A stretch of DNA of 64,000 nt, taken from positions 1-64,000 of IMG/VR virus record IMGVR_UViG_3300010397_000043; one strand, given 5' to 3'. The position numbers and the translations under genes were made by a program. The stretch's first letter is position 1. Each line of letters opens with the position of its first letter. Positions 42,452 through 50,141 of the stretch are shown here, one piece after another. The notes under the pieces were generated by a model. It was not told where the DNA came from. It did not search any database and worked only from the letters and a program-made list of their open reading frames with translations. The stretch is from a virus.

Positions 42452-44554
42452 TTATGATTCGAGGGGTGGCGCATACCGGAACCGATTCGCCTTACCCCCT
42501 TCGTGCTTGAATCGTTCAATACGCAATTTGCCTTCGTCCACTGCCTGTTGCAAATGGACGCGCAAACCCATGGCGTTCGTGAGCCCAGCGTTCAAGATAT
42601 CGGGGTGGTTTTGGATCGAACCCAGCACTCCACTTGCACTCGCAATGGTCCAGTGCCCCTGTGCGTATTTTTCCAGCACCGTGCGGACCACCAGCGACTG
42701 CTGAAATTCCTGTTGCCCGGTGCCAGTCGGTGCCGCGCCGATCTCGTCACCCATCGCCAAAATGCCTGCATTAACATTCCACAACCAGCGCCCGCCATGC
42801 GACGTTGCACCGTAGTTATTCTTCTCCACAATAAGTTCCGTATTGCCGCGTTCGTCGCGCTTTAGACTCCATCGAGCCCGAGCCGAATTGTGCCATTGAG
42901 TAGAACCGCTATACCCATCCCCCGCCTTGCTATCGTGACCCAGCAAAAGCACGGCAAGGTCGTGCTCAATCGCAAGTGCCGCCAGTCCCGAAACGAACTC
43001 GTCCACCATCGCCCGGGCGTTCTCGTTCGCCATGTAAAACTTGGACAGGTTGTCGAGGCATACGTAGGAGTAATTGCCCTCCTCGATGATCTCCTTCAAG
43101 CGGTCGAACTGCACGGTAAATTCGCCGTCTCGAAAGTCCTCGCCGATGTAGAGCGCCTTTCTCGTAATGTGGGCCAGTCCCTTCACGTCGAGCCACTTGC
43201 GCAGCCGCTTGATCGAGATTCCATAGTGCTGGCATATTCCCCAAAGTCGATGCGAAACTTCGTTCAGCTCGTCTTCGGCACCGATGTAGAGCACACGCCC
43301 CCTAGTAACCGGCGCTCCAAACCAGTCGAGCCCCATCGCCACCCGGGCGCAAAACGTCAGCGTGGAGTACGTTTTACCCGCACCGCCATTGGACGAAAAC
43401 AGCACCACGGTCTTGCGGTACATCCAGTTCTTGACCAACGGTTCGGCCCCGGGCGGGCGCTCGGTCGCCTGCTCCATCATGTTCCAGTCAATGTCCTGCC
43501 ACGGCAACGCTTCAACTTCGGCGTCCTCGTCGTCAACACCCGTCGAGCGCACTTTCGACCGCTTCAAGCCCCAAGCCTTCATGGTCTTGTCGGACACCTT
43601 GCAACCGTTGTCAAGGGCCTTGTAGACCAGCGACTTCATGGTTGTCAGGTCGTCCCGGCCATGATCGTGCGAAAAGCCGGCCTCCCAACGCTTCCGGTTA
43701 TTCTCGTAGTCATACCCTTCCCGGGTCGCTGACCACTCATCGAGCACCTCCCACGCAGCCTCCGCCCCATCGAACTGCATGTGCAGCGCAGCCGCCGCGC
43801 GATACCATGTGCCCTCCCCCGGTGCGCCCCACTCGGCGGGCAGTCGCTTCAACACCGCACGGGCCTGTGCGAGCGTAAAGTTGGGCAGTCCCACCGCGTT
43901 CAACGACACGAGCCCTTCCACGGGCTTGCCCCCTGCCGTCGATGCCTTTCCACTACCGACCGAGCCCATGGCCTCGGTCAACTCGCGCTTGATGCCAAAC
44001 GGCATGCGGCGCACCTTGCCCACGTTGTCGAGCAGGTCCTTGATCGCGTTGCCCGTGAACGTGGTGTACGCCGCGCCGCAGTACACCTCTACCCGCTCGC
44101 CATTCGAGATATGGAAGTTGCGCTTTTGTCCCGGGATCAGCGCCTCGCGGTACACCGCGCGCAGGCCACGCCCCGACGGTGACCGCTCGGCGTACACGCC
44201 CGAGTCCACAATGTCGTTGGCGAATTCGCTCAGCTCGCCGTTCTCGTCGATGCAGTTGTCCAGGTCGATGATTGTAAGGTTTTGCTCGGGCAGCACGGCC
44301 AGCCCGACGCCATCAAACTTGCGCTTGCGGGCGTAGGCCAGCGCGGCGTCAAAGGGGGCAAGCTGTTCAACATCCTTTTCCGACCCCAGCACGCCGTACC
44401 GCTTTCGCCCGTTGACGTAGTACGGCACCTTGAGTTGCTTTTTGGCGGGGTCGGGATTGTCCTCGTAGCGCCACACGACCCAGTGATCGAGTTCGCGCAG
44501 CAGTGCAGGGATGTTCTCTTCGTTAACCTGGGTAGTGGCGGTTTGCTTCGACAT
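42452..44554 (-). CDS. Primase-helicase fusion (AEP primase, PriCT-like domain, AAA_25/RepA-type helicase)
   Basis: WVVWR..KVPY, IDLDNC, AERSPSGRGL, EVY; Walker A SNGGAGKT, LLLGHDSK, YSGSTQW...AR, VEKNNYG. Confidence 0.88.
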   Translation of the reverse strand: MSKQTATTQVNEENIPALLRELDHWVVWRYEDNPDPAKKQLKVPYYVNGRKRYGVLGSEKDVEQLAPFDAALAYARKRKFDGVGLAVLPEQNLTIIDLDNCIDENGELSEFANDIVDSGVYAERSPSGRGLRAVYREALIPGQKRNFHISNGERVEVYCGAAYTTFTGNAIKDLLDNVGKVRRMPFGIKRELTEAMGSVGSGKASTAGGKPVEGLVSLNAVGLPNFTLAQARAVLKRLPAEWGAPGEGTWYRAAAALHMQFDGAEAAWEVLDEWSATREGYDYENNRKRWEAGFSHDHGRDDLTTMKSLVYKALDNGCKVSDKTMKAWGLKRSKVRSTGVDDEDAEVEALPWQDIDWNMMEQATERPPGAEPLVKNWMYRKTVVLFSSNGGAGKTYSTLTFCARVAMGLDWFGAPVTRGRVLYIGAEDELNEVSHRLWGICQHYGISIKRLRKWLDVKGLAHITRKALYIGEDFRDGEFTVQFDRLKEIIEEGNYSYVCLDNLSKFYMANENARAMVDEFVSGLAALAIEHDLAVLLLGHDSKAGDGYSGSTQWHNSARARWSLKRDERGNTELIVEKNNYGATSHGGRWLWNVNAGILAMGDEIGAAPTGTGQQEFQQSLVVRTVLEKYAQGHWTIASASGVLGSIQNHPDILNAGLTNAMGLRVHLQQAVDEGKLRIERFKHEGGKANRFRYAPPLES

Positions 44555-44664
44555 AGTAGAACCTGATGAATTACCGGTGGTAATGGGGGCGGGTTTGTTA
44601 CTTGCTAGTCCGGGCCCGGCGGCGTACCATGGGCGCATCGCTTCGTTGCCTGCCTAGCGACTTC

Positions 44665-44700
44665 GCCCCCAGTGCCTAACCGCACCGGGGGCTTTTCTTT
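44665..44700 (+). terminator. Terminator-like hairpin upstream of the primase gene
   Basis: GCCCCCAGTGC/GCACCGGGGGC stem followed by TTTTCTTT. Confidence 0.5.
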
Positions 44701-44735
44701 GCCCGCAGTGGAACACTCCACCGAGGGGGACGCAA

Positions 44736-44890
44736 ATGCTAAGGGCGTGCAAGCCCTGGGCGCAAGTCGTTTCCGCGGGCCCCCGTAGGGGGCCCGAAAT
44801 CCCCCCGCACGCACCCATGCGTACACGCGCGCCTGCCTGGATTAGCAGGGTCGGCTCGACTTGCAGTCCGGTTACAGCCTTTGTTAAAGT
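44736..44890. promoter_or_regulatory. Divergent sigma70-like promoters (primase leftward, paralog array rightward)
   Basis: Minus: TTGCGC-18-TAGCAT (44765-44736). Plus: TTGCAG-18-TAAAGT with extended TG (44861-44890). Confidence 0.45.
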
Positions 44891-44931
44891 AGGGGCACCC
44901 ACCACCCCCGACTTGTAACTGGAGGCACCCC

Positions 44932-45327
44932 ATGGATATCGAGCGGCTTCAAGAACTGCGGCGCGTCATCGTCGAAACGCCCGACGAGCGTGTTGACCTC
45001 AATGGCTGGGCGCGGTCGTGCGGCACCATCGCCTGCGTGCTCGGCTGGGCCTGCAAACACCCGCCGTTCGTGGCCGAGGGACTGCACCTGTTCGAGGACG
45101 AGGGCGCGTACACGCCTTGCTTCGGCAATTTCATCAACTACGAAGCGGGCGGGGAGTTCTTCCGCCTGTCGTACCCCGACGCCGAATTCCTGTTTGGGCC
45201 GCGTTCGTGGGGCGACGCCACGGGCCGCGCCGACATCACCGACAAGCAATTGGCCCTGCAGCGCATCGATGAACTGCTGGGCACGCGCCGCAGCCCGTAC
45301 ACCGATTGCTTTCCCTGCGACGACTGA
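44932..45327 (+). CDS. CGTIAC-motif paralog 1
   Basis: MDIERL..., CGTIACVLGWAC, AGGEFF, KQLALQRIDELL; most divergent copy. Confidence 0.85.
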   Translation: MDIERLQELRRVIVETPDERVDLNGWARSCGTIACVLGWACKHPPFVAEGLHLFEDEGAYTPCFGNFINYEAGGEFFRLSYPDAEFLFGPRSWGDATGRADITDKQLALQRIDELLGTRRSPYTDCFPCDD

Positions 45328-45367
45328 ACCCCATTACCACTGGTAATTCACAATCTGGAGCACAACC

Positions 45368-45802
45368 ATGCACCTCGACCGACTCAAGACCCTGCGCGAC
45401 CTGATGGCGGCGACGCCCGACGACAAGATCGACATGAACTACTGGCGGCGCGAACCCGGCGCCATCTTCGACCCCAACACTCTCAATGCACCCACGTGCG
45501 GCACCGTGGCCTGCATGCTGGGCTGGGCGTGCATGAACCCTGAGTTCCAGACCTTGGGCCTGCACTTTGAGCACGACAGCGTTTCGTTGTACCCGGAGTA
45601 CAACGGCAGGTCTTCTGCCGGGGCCGGTGCTGAGTTCTTCGATCTAGAACCCAAGATCAGTCGTCTGCTGTTCGACGCGGCTTCTCGTCAGGAACTGGCG
45701 GAGCGCGGCTCGCACAAGGCTGTCGCACTGGCCCGGCTCGACGAACTGCTCGAAACGGGCACGCTCCACGACCCCGACTACTACGATCCCAGTGGCGACT
45801 GA
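45368..45802 (+). CDS. CGTIAC-motif paralog 2
   Basis: CGTVACMLGWAC; same conserved blocks. Confidence 0.85.
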   Translation: MHLDRLKTLRDLMAATPDDKIDMNYWRREPGAIFDPNTLNAPTCGTVACMLGWACMNPEFQTLGLHFEHDSVSLYPEYNGRSSAGAGAEFFDLEPKISRLLFDAASRQELAERGSHKAVALARLDELLETGTLHDPDYYDPSGD

Positions 45803-45847
45803 ACCCCATTACCACTGGTAATCGCACTCCTAAACCACGAGGCACCC

Positions 45848-46285
45848 ATGAACATCGAACGACTCAAGACCCTGCGCGACGTGCTGGCCGCGACGCCCGA
45901 CAAGATGGTCAACCTGGACGGCTGGCGATACGACGAAGGGGAAATCTTTTGCGCAACTGGCGACCCCTCCAAGCCCGCGTGCGGCACCATCGCCTGCGTG
46001 CTCGGCTGGGCCTGCATGGTGCCTGAATTTCAGGCAGCAGGACTCAAGCTGATCATCCACGACGGCGAGTTCATCCCGACGTACCAGAAGTACTACCTTC
46101 GCTTTCGTGCCGGCGAGGAGTTCTTTGAACTGGAGACTGACACCGCACGCAAGCTGTTCCGCGCCTCGGCGACGTGCGTCGAGCCAAAGCTCCACAAGCA
46201 GATCGCTCTGGCCCGGCTCGACTGGCTGATCGAGCACGGCGATTTCGACGGGTACAACGAACTCAACCTGGAGCTGCAATCATGA
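45848..46285 (+). CDS. CGTIAC-motif paralog 3
   Basis: MNIERLKTLRDV, CGTIACVLGWAC. Confidence 0.85.
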   Translation: MNIERLKTLRDVLAATPDKMVNLDGWRYDEGEIFCATGDPSKPACGTIACVLGWACMVPEFQAAGLKLIIHDGEFIPTYQKYYLRFRAGEEFFELETDTARKLFRASATCVEPKLHKQIALARLDWLIEHGDFDGYNELNLELQS

Positions 46286-46719
46286 ACATCGAACGACTGC
46301 AAACCCTGCGCGACGTGATCGCAGCCACACCCGACGAAGCCGTGGAGCTCGACCGCTGGCAGCGAGAAAGCCCTATGTGCGGCACCATCGCCTGCGTTCT
46401 CGGCTGGGCCTGCGCGGTGCCCGAGTTCAAGGCCGAGGGCCTGCACTTGGCCCCCACCAGCACCTTTGACAAAGCGCCGTGGTACGACGGGGCGTGCGAG
46501 TACCTCGCGGGCGCCAAGTTCTTCGACATGGAGTACTACGACGCGAGGAAGCTGTTCTCGTACCGTGGCGTGCTGTGGGACGATGACGGCGAGGGGTACG
46601 GGCATGCCGACGACCGAACGGACAAGCAAGTCGCGCTTGACCGGCTTGACCACATGCTCAAGCACGGCACCATGGCCGGGTGGGATCAAGATTCTGAATG
46701 CTACGTGCCCCAGGAGTAA
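46282..46719 (+). CDS. CGTIAC-motif paralog 4
   Basis: ATGA overlap; MNIERLQTLRDV. Confidence 0.85.
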   Translation: MNIERLQTLRDVIAATPDEAVELDRWQRESPMCGTIACVLGWACAVPEFKAEGLHLAPTSTFDKAPWYDGACEYLAGAKFFDMEYYDARKLFSYRGVLWDDDGEGYGHADDRTDKQVALDRLDHMLKHGTMAGWDQDSECYVPQE

Positions 46720-46722
46720 ACC

Positions 46723-47196
46723 ATGCACATCGAACGACTCAAGACTCTGCGCGACGTGATTGCAGCGACGCCCGACGAAGCCGTCAACATGGGCACGTGG
46801 CGGTGCGACCCTGGCGGCTGGGCTAAGGACCCTGCCAAGCCCGAGTGCGGGACCATCGCCTGCATGCTCGGCTGGGCCTGCATGGTGCCTGAGTTTCAGG
46901 CAGCGGGGCTTAAGTTCCTGGCGTTCGCGAACGTGCCAGAAGGCTTTCGGCACCTGGACTTTATTCCGTCGTATGAAGATGATATTTCCTACAGTGCGGG
47001 CGAAGCGTTCTTCGAGCTTGACCCTGGCGTCGGGTACGCACTGTTCAAGACCGCTGAAGCCGGGCTCAACCAAAAGGCCGTCGCCTTGGGCCGGCTCGAC
47101 TACCTGTTGAAGGAAGGACACCTCGGCGGGTACTTCGACCCGCAGCCGCCGGCTGACCCCGACGATGACCAGACCTGGATCGACGACTGGAGCTGA
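46723..47196 (+). CDS. CGTIAC-motif paralog 5
   Basis: MHIERLKTLRDV, CGTIACMLGWAC. Confidence 0.85.
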   Translation: MHIERLKTLRDVIAATPDEAVNMGTWRCDPGGWAKDPAKPECGTIACMLGWACMVPEFQAAGLKFLAFANVPEGFRHLDFIPSYEDDISYSAGEAFFELDPGVGYALFKTAEAGLNQKAVALGRLDYLLKEGHLGGYFDPQPPADPDDDQTWIDDWS

Positions 47197-47230
47197 ACTC
47201 GCCAACCCAACGGACGACTTGGAGCCGACC

Positions 47231-47632
47231 ATGAACATCGAACGACTCAAGACCCTGCGCGACGTGATCGCCACTACGCCAAACGAGAACATCGACCTAT
47301 CGTATTTCATCAAACCGCACGTCTGTGGCACGATCTGCTGCACGCTCGGCTGGGCCTGCGAAGTGCCTGAATTTCAGGCAGAAGGTTTGCGCATGGGCGT
47401 GGACCCTGAGTATACAGTCCTATCCCCTGTGTACGAGGGCCACGTCGGCTTTGAAGCTGCTGTTGCCTTTTTCGAGTTGAGCGGCCTGCACGACGCGTAT
47501 CGCCTGTTCGACGCTGCCGCGCCGCACACCGGCAATAACCACAAGGCGCTCGCCCTGGCGCGGCTCGATTACGCCATCGCGCACGGCTCGATGAACGGGT
47601 ACACGAACTCCGAAGACTGGGCTGTGGAGTAA
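47231..47632 (+). CDS. CGTIAC-motif paralog 6
   Basis: GGAG RBS; CGTICCTLGWAC. Confidence 0.85.
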   Translation: MNIERLKTLRDVIATTPNENIDLSYFIKPHVCGTICCTLGWACEVPEFQAEGLRMGVDPEYTVLSPVYEGHVGFEAAVAFFELSGLHDAYRLFDAAAPHTGNNHKALALARLDYAIAHGSMNGYTNSEDWAVE

Positions 47633-47636
47633 TACC

Positions 47637-48071
47637 ATGAATACCGAACGACTCAAGACCCTGCGCGACGTGATTGCCGCAACACCAGATGACTACGTGG
47701 ACCTCTCGTGGTGGCAGCAGTCCGGCGACTGCGGCACCATCGCCTGCATGCTCGGCTGGGCCTGCGAAGTGCCTGAATTTCAGGCAGCGGGTTTGCGCAT
47801 GGAGCACTACCCGGGCTACGGCGACGCATTCCCTACGCTCGACCAGAAATTCGGCTACGAGGCCGGCGCGGCGTTCTTTGGGCTGGACTACGCAGACTCG
47901 GCGATGCTGTTTTGCGGGCGGGGCTGCAGGTTCAGCACCGAGAATGACGACCGCACGGACAAACAAGTCGCGCTCGACCGGCTCGACCATTTGCTCACGT
48001 ATGGCAACTTCACTGCCATGCGGTTCGCCAGTCGTCCCACCACCAAGCCCCGTTACTGGAGCCAGCCATGA
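47637..48071 (+). CDS. CGTIAC-motif paralog 7
   Basis: MNTERLKTLRDV, CGTIACMLGWAC. Confidence 0.85.
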   Translation: MNTERLKTLRDVIAATPDDYVDLSWWQQSGDCGTIACMLGWACEVPEFQAAGLRMEHYPGYGDAFPTLDQKFGYEAGAAFFGLDYADSAMLFCGRGCRFSTENDDRTDKQVALDRLDHLLTYGNFTAMRFASRPTTKPRYWSQP

Positions 48072-48493
48072 ACATCGAACGACTCAAGACCCTGCGCGAC
48101 GTCATCGCAGCGACACCCGACGAGGTGGTGGACCTGGACCGCTGGCAGTTGACCAAAGACTGCGGCACCATCGCCTGCATTCTTGGCTGGGCCTGCGAAG
48201 TGCCTGAGTTTCAGGCAGCAGGGCTCAAGCTGGTCCCCCACCAAGGCAACCCAGCGCGTTGGGTGCCCGAGTATGACCTGATGTACCGTGAGTTCCGGGC
48301 GGGTGCCAAGTTTTTCGGCCTGTCGTCGGACACTGCACGTCTGCTATTCGGCCAGCGGGCGGCGGACCTCGATACCGAAAACAAAAGGACTGGCGACGTG
48401 CGCACAGATCGGGAAGTTGCATTGGACCGGCTCGACCATTTGATCAAGCACGGCAACTTCAACGCGCTGTTGCCGGAGTGGCTGCACGAGTAA
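48068..48493 (+). CDS. CGTIAC-motif paralog 8
   Basis: ATGA overlap; CGTIACILGWAC. Confidence 0.85.
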   Translation: MNIERLKTLRDVIAATPDEVVDLDRWQLTKDCGTIACILGWACEVPEFQAAGLKLVPHQGNPARWVPEYDLMYREFRAGAKFFGLSSDTARLLFGQRAADLDTENKRTGDVRTDREVALDRLDHLIKHGNFNALLPEWLHE

Positions 48494-48509
48494 CCCAGGA
48501 GACACAACC

Positions 48510-48752
48510 ATGTCTACCGCCATCGTGTATCGCAAGCGCACCCTCGTGAACACAGACCCACAGCGGCGCTGCTACAACGGGTGCTACTTCAGTGCTGAGC
48601 TACGTTGGACTCCCTGGGAGGTGCTGGAAAGCATGTGCTTTCTGAAGCCCGGTACAGACCCCGAGGGGCGGCTGAAGTTCTGGCGCGAGCTGAACGACTA
48701 CGCAGTAAGCCAGCGTGGCGAGAGTGCCCGCTGTGAGTTCAAGCTGTCTTGA
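48510..48752 (+). CDS. Hypothetical protein (NTDPQRRCYNGC motif)
   Basis: AGGAG RBS; 80 aa. Confidence 0.7.
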   Translation: MSTAIVYRKRTLVNTDPQRRCYNGCYFSAELRWTPWEVLESMCFLKPGTDPEGRLKFWRELNDYAVSQRGESARCEFKLS

Positions 48753-48773
48753 CCCCCACCAGGAGACACGACC

Positions 48774-48959
48774 ATGCACCCGCTTGCGTTCACGTTCCTT
48801 TGCATCTTCCTGATCTTGATCATGCTCGGCAGCGTCGTGGCCGGCGCGTGGCTAATCGGCCACGAGCAGGACACGTGCGTGCAGCGCGGCGGGGTGCCCG
48901 TCGTAATCAAGGGCAGGTTGCTGTGCCTCGACCCCACCTCGCTCAAGAAGCTCGCCTAA
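48774..48959 (+). CDS. Small membrane protein
   Basis: N-terminal TM segment; CxxxGG..C motif. Confidence 0.65.
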   Translation: MHPLAFTFLCIFLILIMLGSVVAGAWLIGHEQDTCVQRGGVPVVIKGRLLCLDPTSLKKLA

Positions 48960-50099: not shown

Positions 50100-50141
50100 A
50101 ACCCCATTACCACCGGTAATTCAAAAAACGAGGTATCAATT

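Follow-up and report, generated by a model that had tools for sequence, protein, structure and literature searches.

Eight tandem genes with a common core

The DNA analysed here, called the window below, is a stretch of 64,000 nucleotides that comprises positions 1 to 64,000 of the IMG/VR virus record IMGVR_UViG_3300010397_000043. The whole record is linear, 87,528 bp long and 84% complete according to the CheckV estimate, and it looks like the genome of a tailed phage. Between positions 44932 and 48493 of the window the + strand carries an array of eight consecutive intact genes that encode paralogous proteins of 131-157 aa. A profile of the eight copies matched exactly eight places in the 87,528-bp record, and no stop codon or frameshift interrupts any of the copies.

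Copy 1 (44932-45327; 131 aa, pI 4.56), the most divergent of the eight, has TGGAGG upstream of its ATG and is followed by copy 2 (45368-45802; 144 aa, pI 4.73) and copy 3 (45848-46285; 145 aa, pI 4.95). Copy 4 (46282-46719; pI 4.51), which is 145 aa long when read from an inner ATG, overlaps the stop of copy 3 by 4 nt, and copy 5 (46723-47196; 157 aa, pI 4.35) starts 3 nt past copy 4. Copy 6 (47231-47632; 133 aa, pI 4.86) is also read from an inner ATG, within a frame open from 47165; it is followed by copy 7 (47637-48071; 144 aa, pI 4.79) and by copy 8 (48068-48493; 141 aa, pI 5.38), the start of which shares 4 nt with the stop end of copy 7. From one copy to the next, the spacers measure 40, 45, -4, 3, 34, 4 and -4 nt, and ahead of each start there is either a GGAG-type site or a 4-nt overlap. 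All eight proteins are acidic (pI 4.35-5.38, net charge -5 to -14). Opposite copies 3-6, the minus strand contains a 416-aa open frame (46093-47343), most likely a by-product of G+C-rich coding on the other strand.

A MAFFT alignment of the eight proteins (41-51% identity to copy 1) contains 31 invariant columns and four blocks, and the invariant residues include CGT(I/V)(A/C)CxLGWAC in all eight copies. This agrees with the preliminary description of the DNA, a reading of the letters and open reading frames that had reported eight tandem paralogs sharing four blocks. The split of the C-terminal ends is also as described there, with TDKQ/TDRE in copies 1, 4, 7 and 8 and HK/QK in copies 2, 3, 5 and 6. 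The same description had proposed a constant Cys scaffold with variable loops: the constant core with variable segments was found, but the third Cys (in the WAC of the array) is not conserved across the wider family, in which the conserved Cys number two only. As judged by eye, the variable segments of the array coincide with length-variable stretches of that family. A crude propensity profile, which is weak evidence, places helices at both termini, downstream of the Cys segment and across the FF...LF block.

In the k=31 contigs of a soil metagenome run, probably the source of the record, breaks occur exactly at the conserved blocks, so that the joins of the array are without independent confirmation and depend on the original assembly. 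Pieces of these contigs cover the array with no mismatch, and the longest exact repeats are 39 nt, a length spanned by ordinary reads. Over the array, the contigs of the run contained no joints indicative of copy-number variants and three loose ends, one of which is the sequence following a palindrome at 50106 (see below), the other two being absent from this genome.

Age of the copies and exchange between them

The proportions of nonsynonymous (pN) and synonymous (pS) differences were determined by Nei-Gojobori counts. Among the copies, mean pS is 0.53 (pairwise 0.41-0.63) and the synonymous substitution rate dS is 0.6-1.4; with the synonymous sites saturated to this degree, the duplications must be old. 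In the conserved columns pN is 0.06 versus a pS of 0.46, and the core is under strong purifying selection in every copy. The preliminary description had named per-site dN/dS as a check. Here dN/dS gave no evidence of positive selection: in the variable columns (pN 0.53, pS 0.58) the ratio omega ranges from 0.35 to 1.39 and, since the synonymous sites are saturated, is uninformative on this point. A recent amplification of the 'genomic accordion' type was rejected on account of the pairwise pS values and of the 41-51% amino-acid identity to copy 1. We also rejected the array as target of a diversity-generating retroelement (DGR): a search with PF00078 yielded 0 matches in the 87,528-bp record (84% complete), whereas matches were obtained in 3 control genomes, and an array in a record with no reverse transcriptase is not a DGR target.

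A quick tree of 68 rows placed copies 2-8 in one clade (support of 89 in the Shimodaira-Hasegawa-like approximate likelihood ratio test, SH-aLRT) together with P0005, which is copy 5 from another record (151/152 residues identical); another listed relative, P0154, is the same protein as copy 6. A second tree of 35 rows contained the eight copies and 27 of the 59 outside rows, after P0005, six long-branch rows and every second remaining row had been dropped. The 35-row tree holding all eight copies together was 17.25 log-likelihood units better than the tree from a free quick search (p-AU, the approximately unbiased test, 0.724). A putative single local origin of the eight copies is the best tree found and is not rejected. 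By sequence comparison, the eight genes appear as old tandem duplications within this phage lineage, all of which have been kept intact.

Two stretches of these genes are far more alike at the DNA level. We compared codons in columns with a residue common to at least 7 of the 8 copies, taking the expectation from the codon usage of this phage. Same-codon identity was 0.75 in the start block (first ~13 codons; 0.41 expected) and 0.85 in the CGT block (0.50 expected), versus 0.49 in the other 25 conserved columns (0.44 expected). For the two blocks jointly (18 columns) the observed value of 0.81 was reached in 0 of 5,000 simulations, compared with 327 of 5,000 for the other 25 columns, and the difference between blocks and remaining conserved columns was significant (Mann-Whitney p=2.4e-5). 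The earlier statement that the blocks are nearly identical in DNA is therefore retained for the start block and the CGT block and dropped for the remaining conserved columns. Rare codons are held in common, namely CGA for Arg (6% usage) in 7 of the 8 copies and CCT for Pro (13% usage) in 6. In the CGT block, a 39-nt exact repeat links copy 1 (45017-45055, + strand) and copy 3 (second occurrence at 45978); in the start block, a 38-nt exact repeat links 45846-45883 (+ strand) with copy 6 (from 47229), and 37 nt of it also occur in copy 8 (from 48066).

Recombination was further assessed with the pairwise homoplasy index (PHI). In the site permutation 0 of 1,000 replicates reached the observed value; when whole codons were permuted and within-codon pairs excluded, it was reached by 0 of 500 replicates with windows of 6 and 12 codons, by 10 of 500 with a window of 3 and by 3 of 500 with a window of 25. 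The nearest neighbours of individual copies depend on the segment: that of copy 6 is copy 7 in the CGT block and copy 3 in the C-terminal part, and those of copy 8 are copies 5 and 7 in the CGT block and copies 7 and 4 at the C-terminus. That copies recombine at the conserved blocks, as suggested in the preliminary description, is supported by the rare-codon sharing, the 38-39-nt exact repeats, the PHI values (0/500) and these segment-dependent neighbours, and the comparison points to short-tract gene conversion, or recombination, among the copies in the two stretches where conservation is greatest. When ten other arrays of the family were compared, codon identity in the CGT block relative to the rest of the gene was higher in 5 (by at most 0.17) and lower in 5; as there is no comparable codon excess, the homogeneity belongs to this array and not to the family. 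An RNA structure behind the conserved DNA block was rejected, the consensus hairpin being without covariation and its folding energies being no better than those of shuffles in any of the eight copies (z between -0.73 and +0.52).

The first two spacers contain a palindrome, ATTACCACTGGTAAT, at 45333-45347 (between copies 1 and 2) and at 45808-45822 (between copies 2 and 3), in the positions where operator palindromes had previously been described. It forms part of a 36-nt repeat (45312-45347 and 45787-45822, 92% identity), which spans the final 16 nt of copy 1 or copy 2 and runs through the palindrome; the ends of these two copies seem to have been homogenised along with the spacers, though the genes are otherwise saturated. 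In the window, the palindrome ATTACC-N3-GGTAAT occurs at 9 sites (6039, 13953, 28616, 41550, 44570, 45333, 45808, 50106 and 55595), versus 0.02 expected by chance, and at 5 of the 9 an ATG lies within 15 to about 35 nt after it. Three of the sites (45333, 45808 and 50106) have a common left flank, GAACCCC, just past a stop codon.

The Cys-pair family and the surroundings of the array

A profile of the eight copies was searched against 1.84 billion representative sequences of clusters at 50% identity. With thresholds of E<=1e-3 and E<=1e-10, the family thus delimited comprises 6,997 and 1,634 representative clusters, respectively; the best match outside this phage had E=1.1e-31, and nearly all of the 150 relatives listed are 109-194 aa long. 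Among 63 aligned members, L9, W26, C32, C37, G40, G52 and F82 are invariant, and conservation of 90% or more is also seen at R5, R121 and a number of hydrophobic or small positions. The pattern Cx4Cx2G occurs in all of the 154 members collected. All eight copies display the features by which the family is recognised (a Cx4Cx2G(W) helix, an N-terminal RL..L helix, FF...LF, a C-terminal Arg helix and a length of 110-190 aa). The family-wide conservation of Arg, Trp and Cys suggests a shared functional site, which would go beyond a passive scaffold.

Searches of annotated collections provided no function for this family. Pfam gave no match for the eight copies at E<=1 nor for the 63 members at E<=0.01, and profile searches of NCBIfam and the PDB revealed no significant relative. 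With PADLOC, one of the 63 members was matched (PDC-S15, E=0.0053) and no array copy in that set. In PHROGs, matches were confined to phrog_889 and phrog_30739, both of unknown function. The former (162 positions) matched 6 of the 8 copies weakly, at E values of 1.6e-5 (copy 3) to 4.8e-3 with 1.3e-4 for copy 2, leaving copies 1 and 6 unmatched; it was found at six places in the genome search and in 40 of the 63 relatives. It resembles the array copies in length and matched region, and carries no function. A match to a characterised family with a housekeeping role, which would speak against the repertoire of host-directed binders envisaged in the preliminary description, was found in none of Pfam, NCBIfam, PADLOC, the PDB and the named entries of PHROGs. 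The ESM Atlas contains copy 8, whose own model has a predicted TM-score (pTM) of 0.76; its feature and structure neighbours are unnamed clusters, mostly viral (67-100% viruses), and no close named structural neighbour was present there (best TM-score 0.31). In the literature, a full-text search without supplements found no paper that mentions phrog_889 and none for Ac42 with NUDIX and phage, nor did papers on tandem paralogs and on the cultured carrier phages, again without supplements, yield a functional statement.

Two resemblances to known enzymes were rejected. A diaminopimelate epimerase-like fold (3ejx, 2otn) was matched at E=1.5-1.7 over about 35 residues, and the likeness to the catalytic-Cys helix of DapF is a local motif, W.R......aCGTgACA, at a helix start; the rest of DapF is unlike the family, no DapF-type cluster occurs among the ESM Atlas structural neighbours, and we treat the motif as a probable chance likeness or convergent helix cap. 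NUDIX hydrolases (PF00293) were likewise rejected, no match at E<=1 having been obtained with any of the eight copies.

The family is mostly viral. Among 50,697 records of cultured phages searched by tblastn with four members, about a dozen match: five EAb13/Mystique-type Acinetobacter siphoviruses, Ac42 (two records), Xylophilus phage Lumi, Pseudomonas phage UAntarctica and two Rhizobium phages. Six of 301 sampled genomes of one bacterial class carry the gene, with one copy each.

To describe copy number elsewhere, 92 loci of about +/-5 kb (88 IMG/VR loci, one locus of a metagenome-assembled genome and three stretches of phage DNA from GenBank; a few contigs occur twice) were scanned with the hidden Markov model of the family. 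One hit was present in 70 loci, two in 16, three in 3 and four in 3, i.e. at least two in 22 of 92. At three loci (L074 4995-5468, L078 4875-5384 and L079 3711-4244) two partial hits lie about 60-120 nt apart and may represent one gene interrupted by an insertion, frameshift or intron. For whole records the counts were five for a complete phage of 350 kb (four in tandem), five for a fragment of 19.5 kb, three, all tandem, for a complete phage of 70.8 kb and three genes, one of them split so that there were four hits, for a record of 105 kb; the third copy in the array of the 70.8-kb phage (G309:C1:20905-21264) has an in-frame TGA. Amino-acid identity inside these other arrays is 29-63%. Copy number therefore varies from 1 to 8 between phages, as the preliminary description had considered for relatives: the family is usually single-copy and multiplies in tandem repeatedly, and the present array is not a unique invention. 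With five per record as the largest count outside it, eight is the largest expansion seen, and degree, not kind, sets this array apart.

Two family domains in one chain were found in 3 of the 150 relatives listed (P0008, P0009 and P0011), and the second domain of P0011 is without either Cys of the pair. In Ac42p217 of Acinetobacter phage Ac42 (HM032710.1; locus L002, 2501-3214) the family domain forms the first ~105 residues (family profile E=1.5e-27; 38.9% identity to copy 8 over residues 1-54 by tblastn), ahead of a NUDIX domain (PF00293, E=7e-13, residues 114-168). The protein is annotated as a putative NUDIX hydrolase; its C-terminal domain is missing from all eight copies. A search with the N-terminal domain of Ac42 matched Ac42 alone, so a second NUDIX fusion was not found, and the search with the family profile (A2) found no longer fusion proteins, which is weak evidence. 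The label 'ADP-ribose pyrophosphatase' on gene 20 of fJoAci04 is without Pfam support; on the stand-alone homologues of fJoAci01 and fJoAci04 it probably spread from the Ac42 fusion. No conserved neighbour gene was detected, the best same-strand cluster being present in 6 of 91 loci.

The minus strand of the genome around the array encodes a large terminase (phrog_9, about 48% identity to the HK97 type), a portal and a tail protein J. The leftward block closes with a 728-aa open frame for a primase/helicase (42452-44638, minus strand), whose start is probably the ATG at 44554 (MSKQTA..., 700 aa) rather than 44638; this putative start lies 15 nt downstream of a palindrome. The divergent intergenic region that follows (44555-44931), between the leftward primase/helicase gene and copy 1, includes one ATTACC-N3-GGTAAT palindrome at 44570-44584 and gave no match to an Rfam family. 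From 44932 on, the + strand carries the array, HNH and exonuclease genes and many genes of unknown function. The eight genes had been described as the first of a rightward operon, which holds by position only: between 44400 and 50400 no sigma-70-like promoter was found, and the 3 terminator-like matches there all lie within coding sequence, shuffles averaging more. Just 3' of the array, an 18-nt repeat (48495-48512 and 48759-48776, 94% identity) carries the ribosome site and ATG of two small genes, one of which codes for a 61-aa peptide that is hydrophobic. Megablast against phages found no close relative of this phage, an exact DNA pattern had 0 matches in viral contigs, and a metagenome scan with P0005 returned one distant locus and nothing closer.

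Possible functions and relation to known systems

We tentatively favour, at somewhat less than even chance, the reading that the array encodes a repertoire of host-directed binding or inhibiting modules. The core would carry a conserved site consisting of the invariant Cys pair (Cx4C), a conserved Trp and two Arg, and would probably work as a dimer; dimerisation is suggested by the existence of double-domain fusions and the frequency of tandem pairs. Partner specificity would be set by the tail and by three length-variable segments, in all of which the copies differ. Since the eight acidic proteins stand at the head of the rightward, replication-side transcription unit, they are, by position, probably made early. 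They could act on different host factors, defence components being the most plausible targets. Exchange at the start block and the CGTxxCxLGWAC helix also mixes the variable segments among the copies.

Several points weigh against a repertoire of this kind. Nothing ties the family to defence systems, and no RNA run turned up among the sequencing runs that contain the region; the conserved Cys, Arg and Trp would suit an enzyme or cofactor protein equally, and the array heads an operon with HNH and exonuclease genes, which a phage-internal role would also fit. Positive selection was not demonstrated, given the omega values in the variable columns and the saturated synonymous sites. PHI on third positions alone was not significant (the observed value was equalled or undercut by 247 to 612 of 1,000 permutations), copy 1 falls, with weak support, outside the clade of the other seven in the quick tree, and the statements on loops, core and dimer rest on sequence only.

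An alternative that we consider unlikely is a shared small-molecule activity, in which the Cys pair, the two Arg and the Trp would bind or process a nucleotide-derived ligand, a metal or an Fe-S centre. Candidate ligands would be, for example, NAD- or ADP-ribose-derived immune signals, for which the paralogs would differ in preference, and the copies would be sponges or thiol enzymes instead of protein binders. Such an activity is consistent with the family-wide conservation of polar residues, with the universality of the Cys pair, both members of which were lost together in the second domain of P0011, and with the placement of the Ac42 domain upstream of NUDIX; the fusion was seen once only, though, and no Pfam, NCBIfam or PDB match was obtained, sponge families in Pfam included. 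Two Cys would be insufficient for a usual metal site unless contributed by a dimer, and no His, Asp or Glu is conserved for catalysis. The location of the array, with the primase/helicase gene on one side and on the other an operon that includes HNH, exonuclease and further replication-type genes, could instead indicate accessory subunits or chaperones for DNA replication or modification within the phage, with eight copies as a result of subfunctionalisation. We give this only a small chance: across the 91 loci no gene co-occurs with the family, the copy number changes from 1 to 8 between phages, and housekeeping accessory proteins are seldom so multiplied and divergent as in the other arrays (29-63% identity).

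The stretch A..FFG(I/L)S...A..LF resembles a helix-turn-helix by eye, palindromes flank copies 1-3 and recur at 9 sites of the window, and the nearest named ESM Atlas neighbours are of MarR type, all of which could be taken to mean that the copies are DNA-binding regulators. Yet the TM-scores of those neighbours are just 0.30-0.31, and 0.3 is chance level; no Pfam helix-turn-helix family matches, the putative recognition helix is variable and acidic, and proteins with net charges of -5 to -14 would be strongly acidic for this task, which makes such regulators very improbable. Least credible of all is an assembly artefact, or a set of decaying neutral duplicates with no present function. The region was found in one sequencing run alone, probably its source, in which the k=31 contigs break at the conserved blocks; but exact repeats of at most 39 nt are below usual read length, the contig pieces tile the array without mismatch, all eight frames are open with a core pN far below pS (0.06 versus 0.46), and diverged tandem copies recur across independent phages.

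A more elaborate reading can be envisaged, in which a dimeric Cys-pair module allows paralogs to pair in many combinations and the homogenised blocks serve as recombination anchors that reshuffle the variable segments. The chance that all of this holds is slim. If true, a 3.6-kb array would encode and renew a combinatorial binder repertoire, a phage counterpart of cassette-based variation without reverse transcriptase.

Host-directed viral genes are known to be amplified in tandem, as in T4 tifA and poxvirus K3L. For anti-defence genes, segmental amplification of this type (a 'genomic accordion') is reported in the phage T6 SegB/Septu case (PMC13096335). The likeness to the present array is that tandem duplication in a virus raises the copy number of a gene directed, in the present case putatively, at the host; accordions consist of recent, near-identical copies, while the synonymous sites here are saturated (mean pS 0.53), so the array is old, diversified and stably kept and is not an accordion. 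Tad1, Tad2 and Acb2, the phage sponges for immune signalling nucleotides, are small, stand-alone, oligomeric and early proteins and are what the array would resemble if its products were sponges, but the array copies match no Pfam family.

A close precedent is that of the jumbo phages G and 121Q, whose 350-500 kb genomes are described as containing tandem arrays of similar genes with more than 30 copies (Hua et al. 2017, mBio, PMC5646251). Common to both cases is the head-to-tail multiplication of one small gene, read there as tandem duplication (PMC5646251). Other families are involved in phages G and 121Q, whereas here eight copies of a usually single-copy family lie in a siphovirus-like genome of ~87.5 kb and show DNA homogenisation limited to blocks. 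A tandem array of diverged small phage genes is thus already in print (PMC5646251). The present evidence reveals no new kind of system, and the array is a real yet fairly ordinary type of phage gene expansion. Tandem arrays of small, acidic, diverged and presumably early proteins are a recurring, functionally blank feature of phages, and the Cys-pair family, common in metagenomic phages (~7,000 clusters at 50% identity) and rare in cultured ones (about a dozen of 50,697 records), is a well-defined target for structure determination and defence-panel screens. To the precedent of phages G and 121Q the array adds a large, unnamed family marked by its invariant Cys pair, together with an apparent block-limited gene conversion, which would make it a clean small case of segment exchange among phage paralogs.

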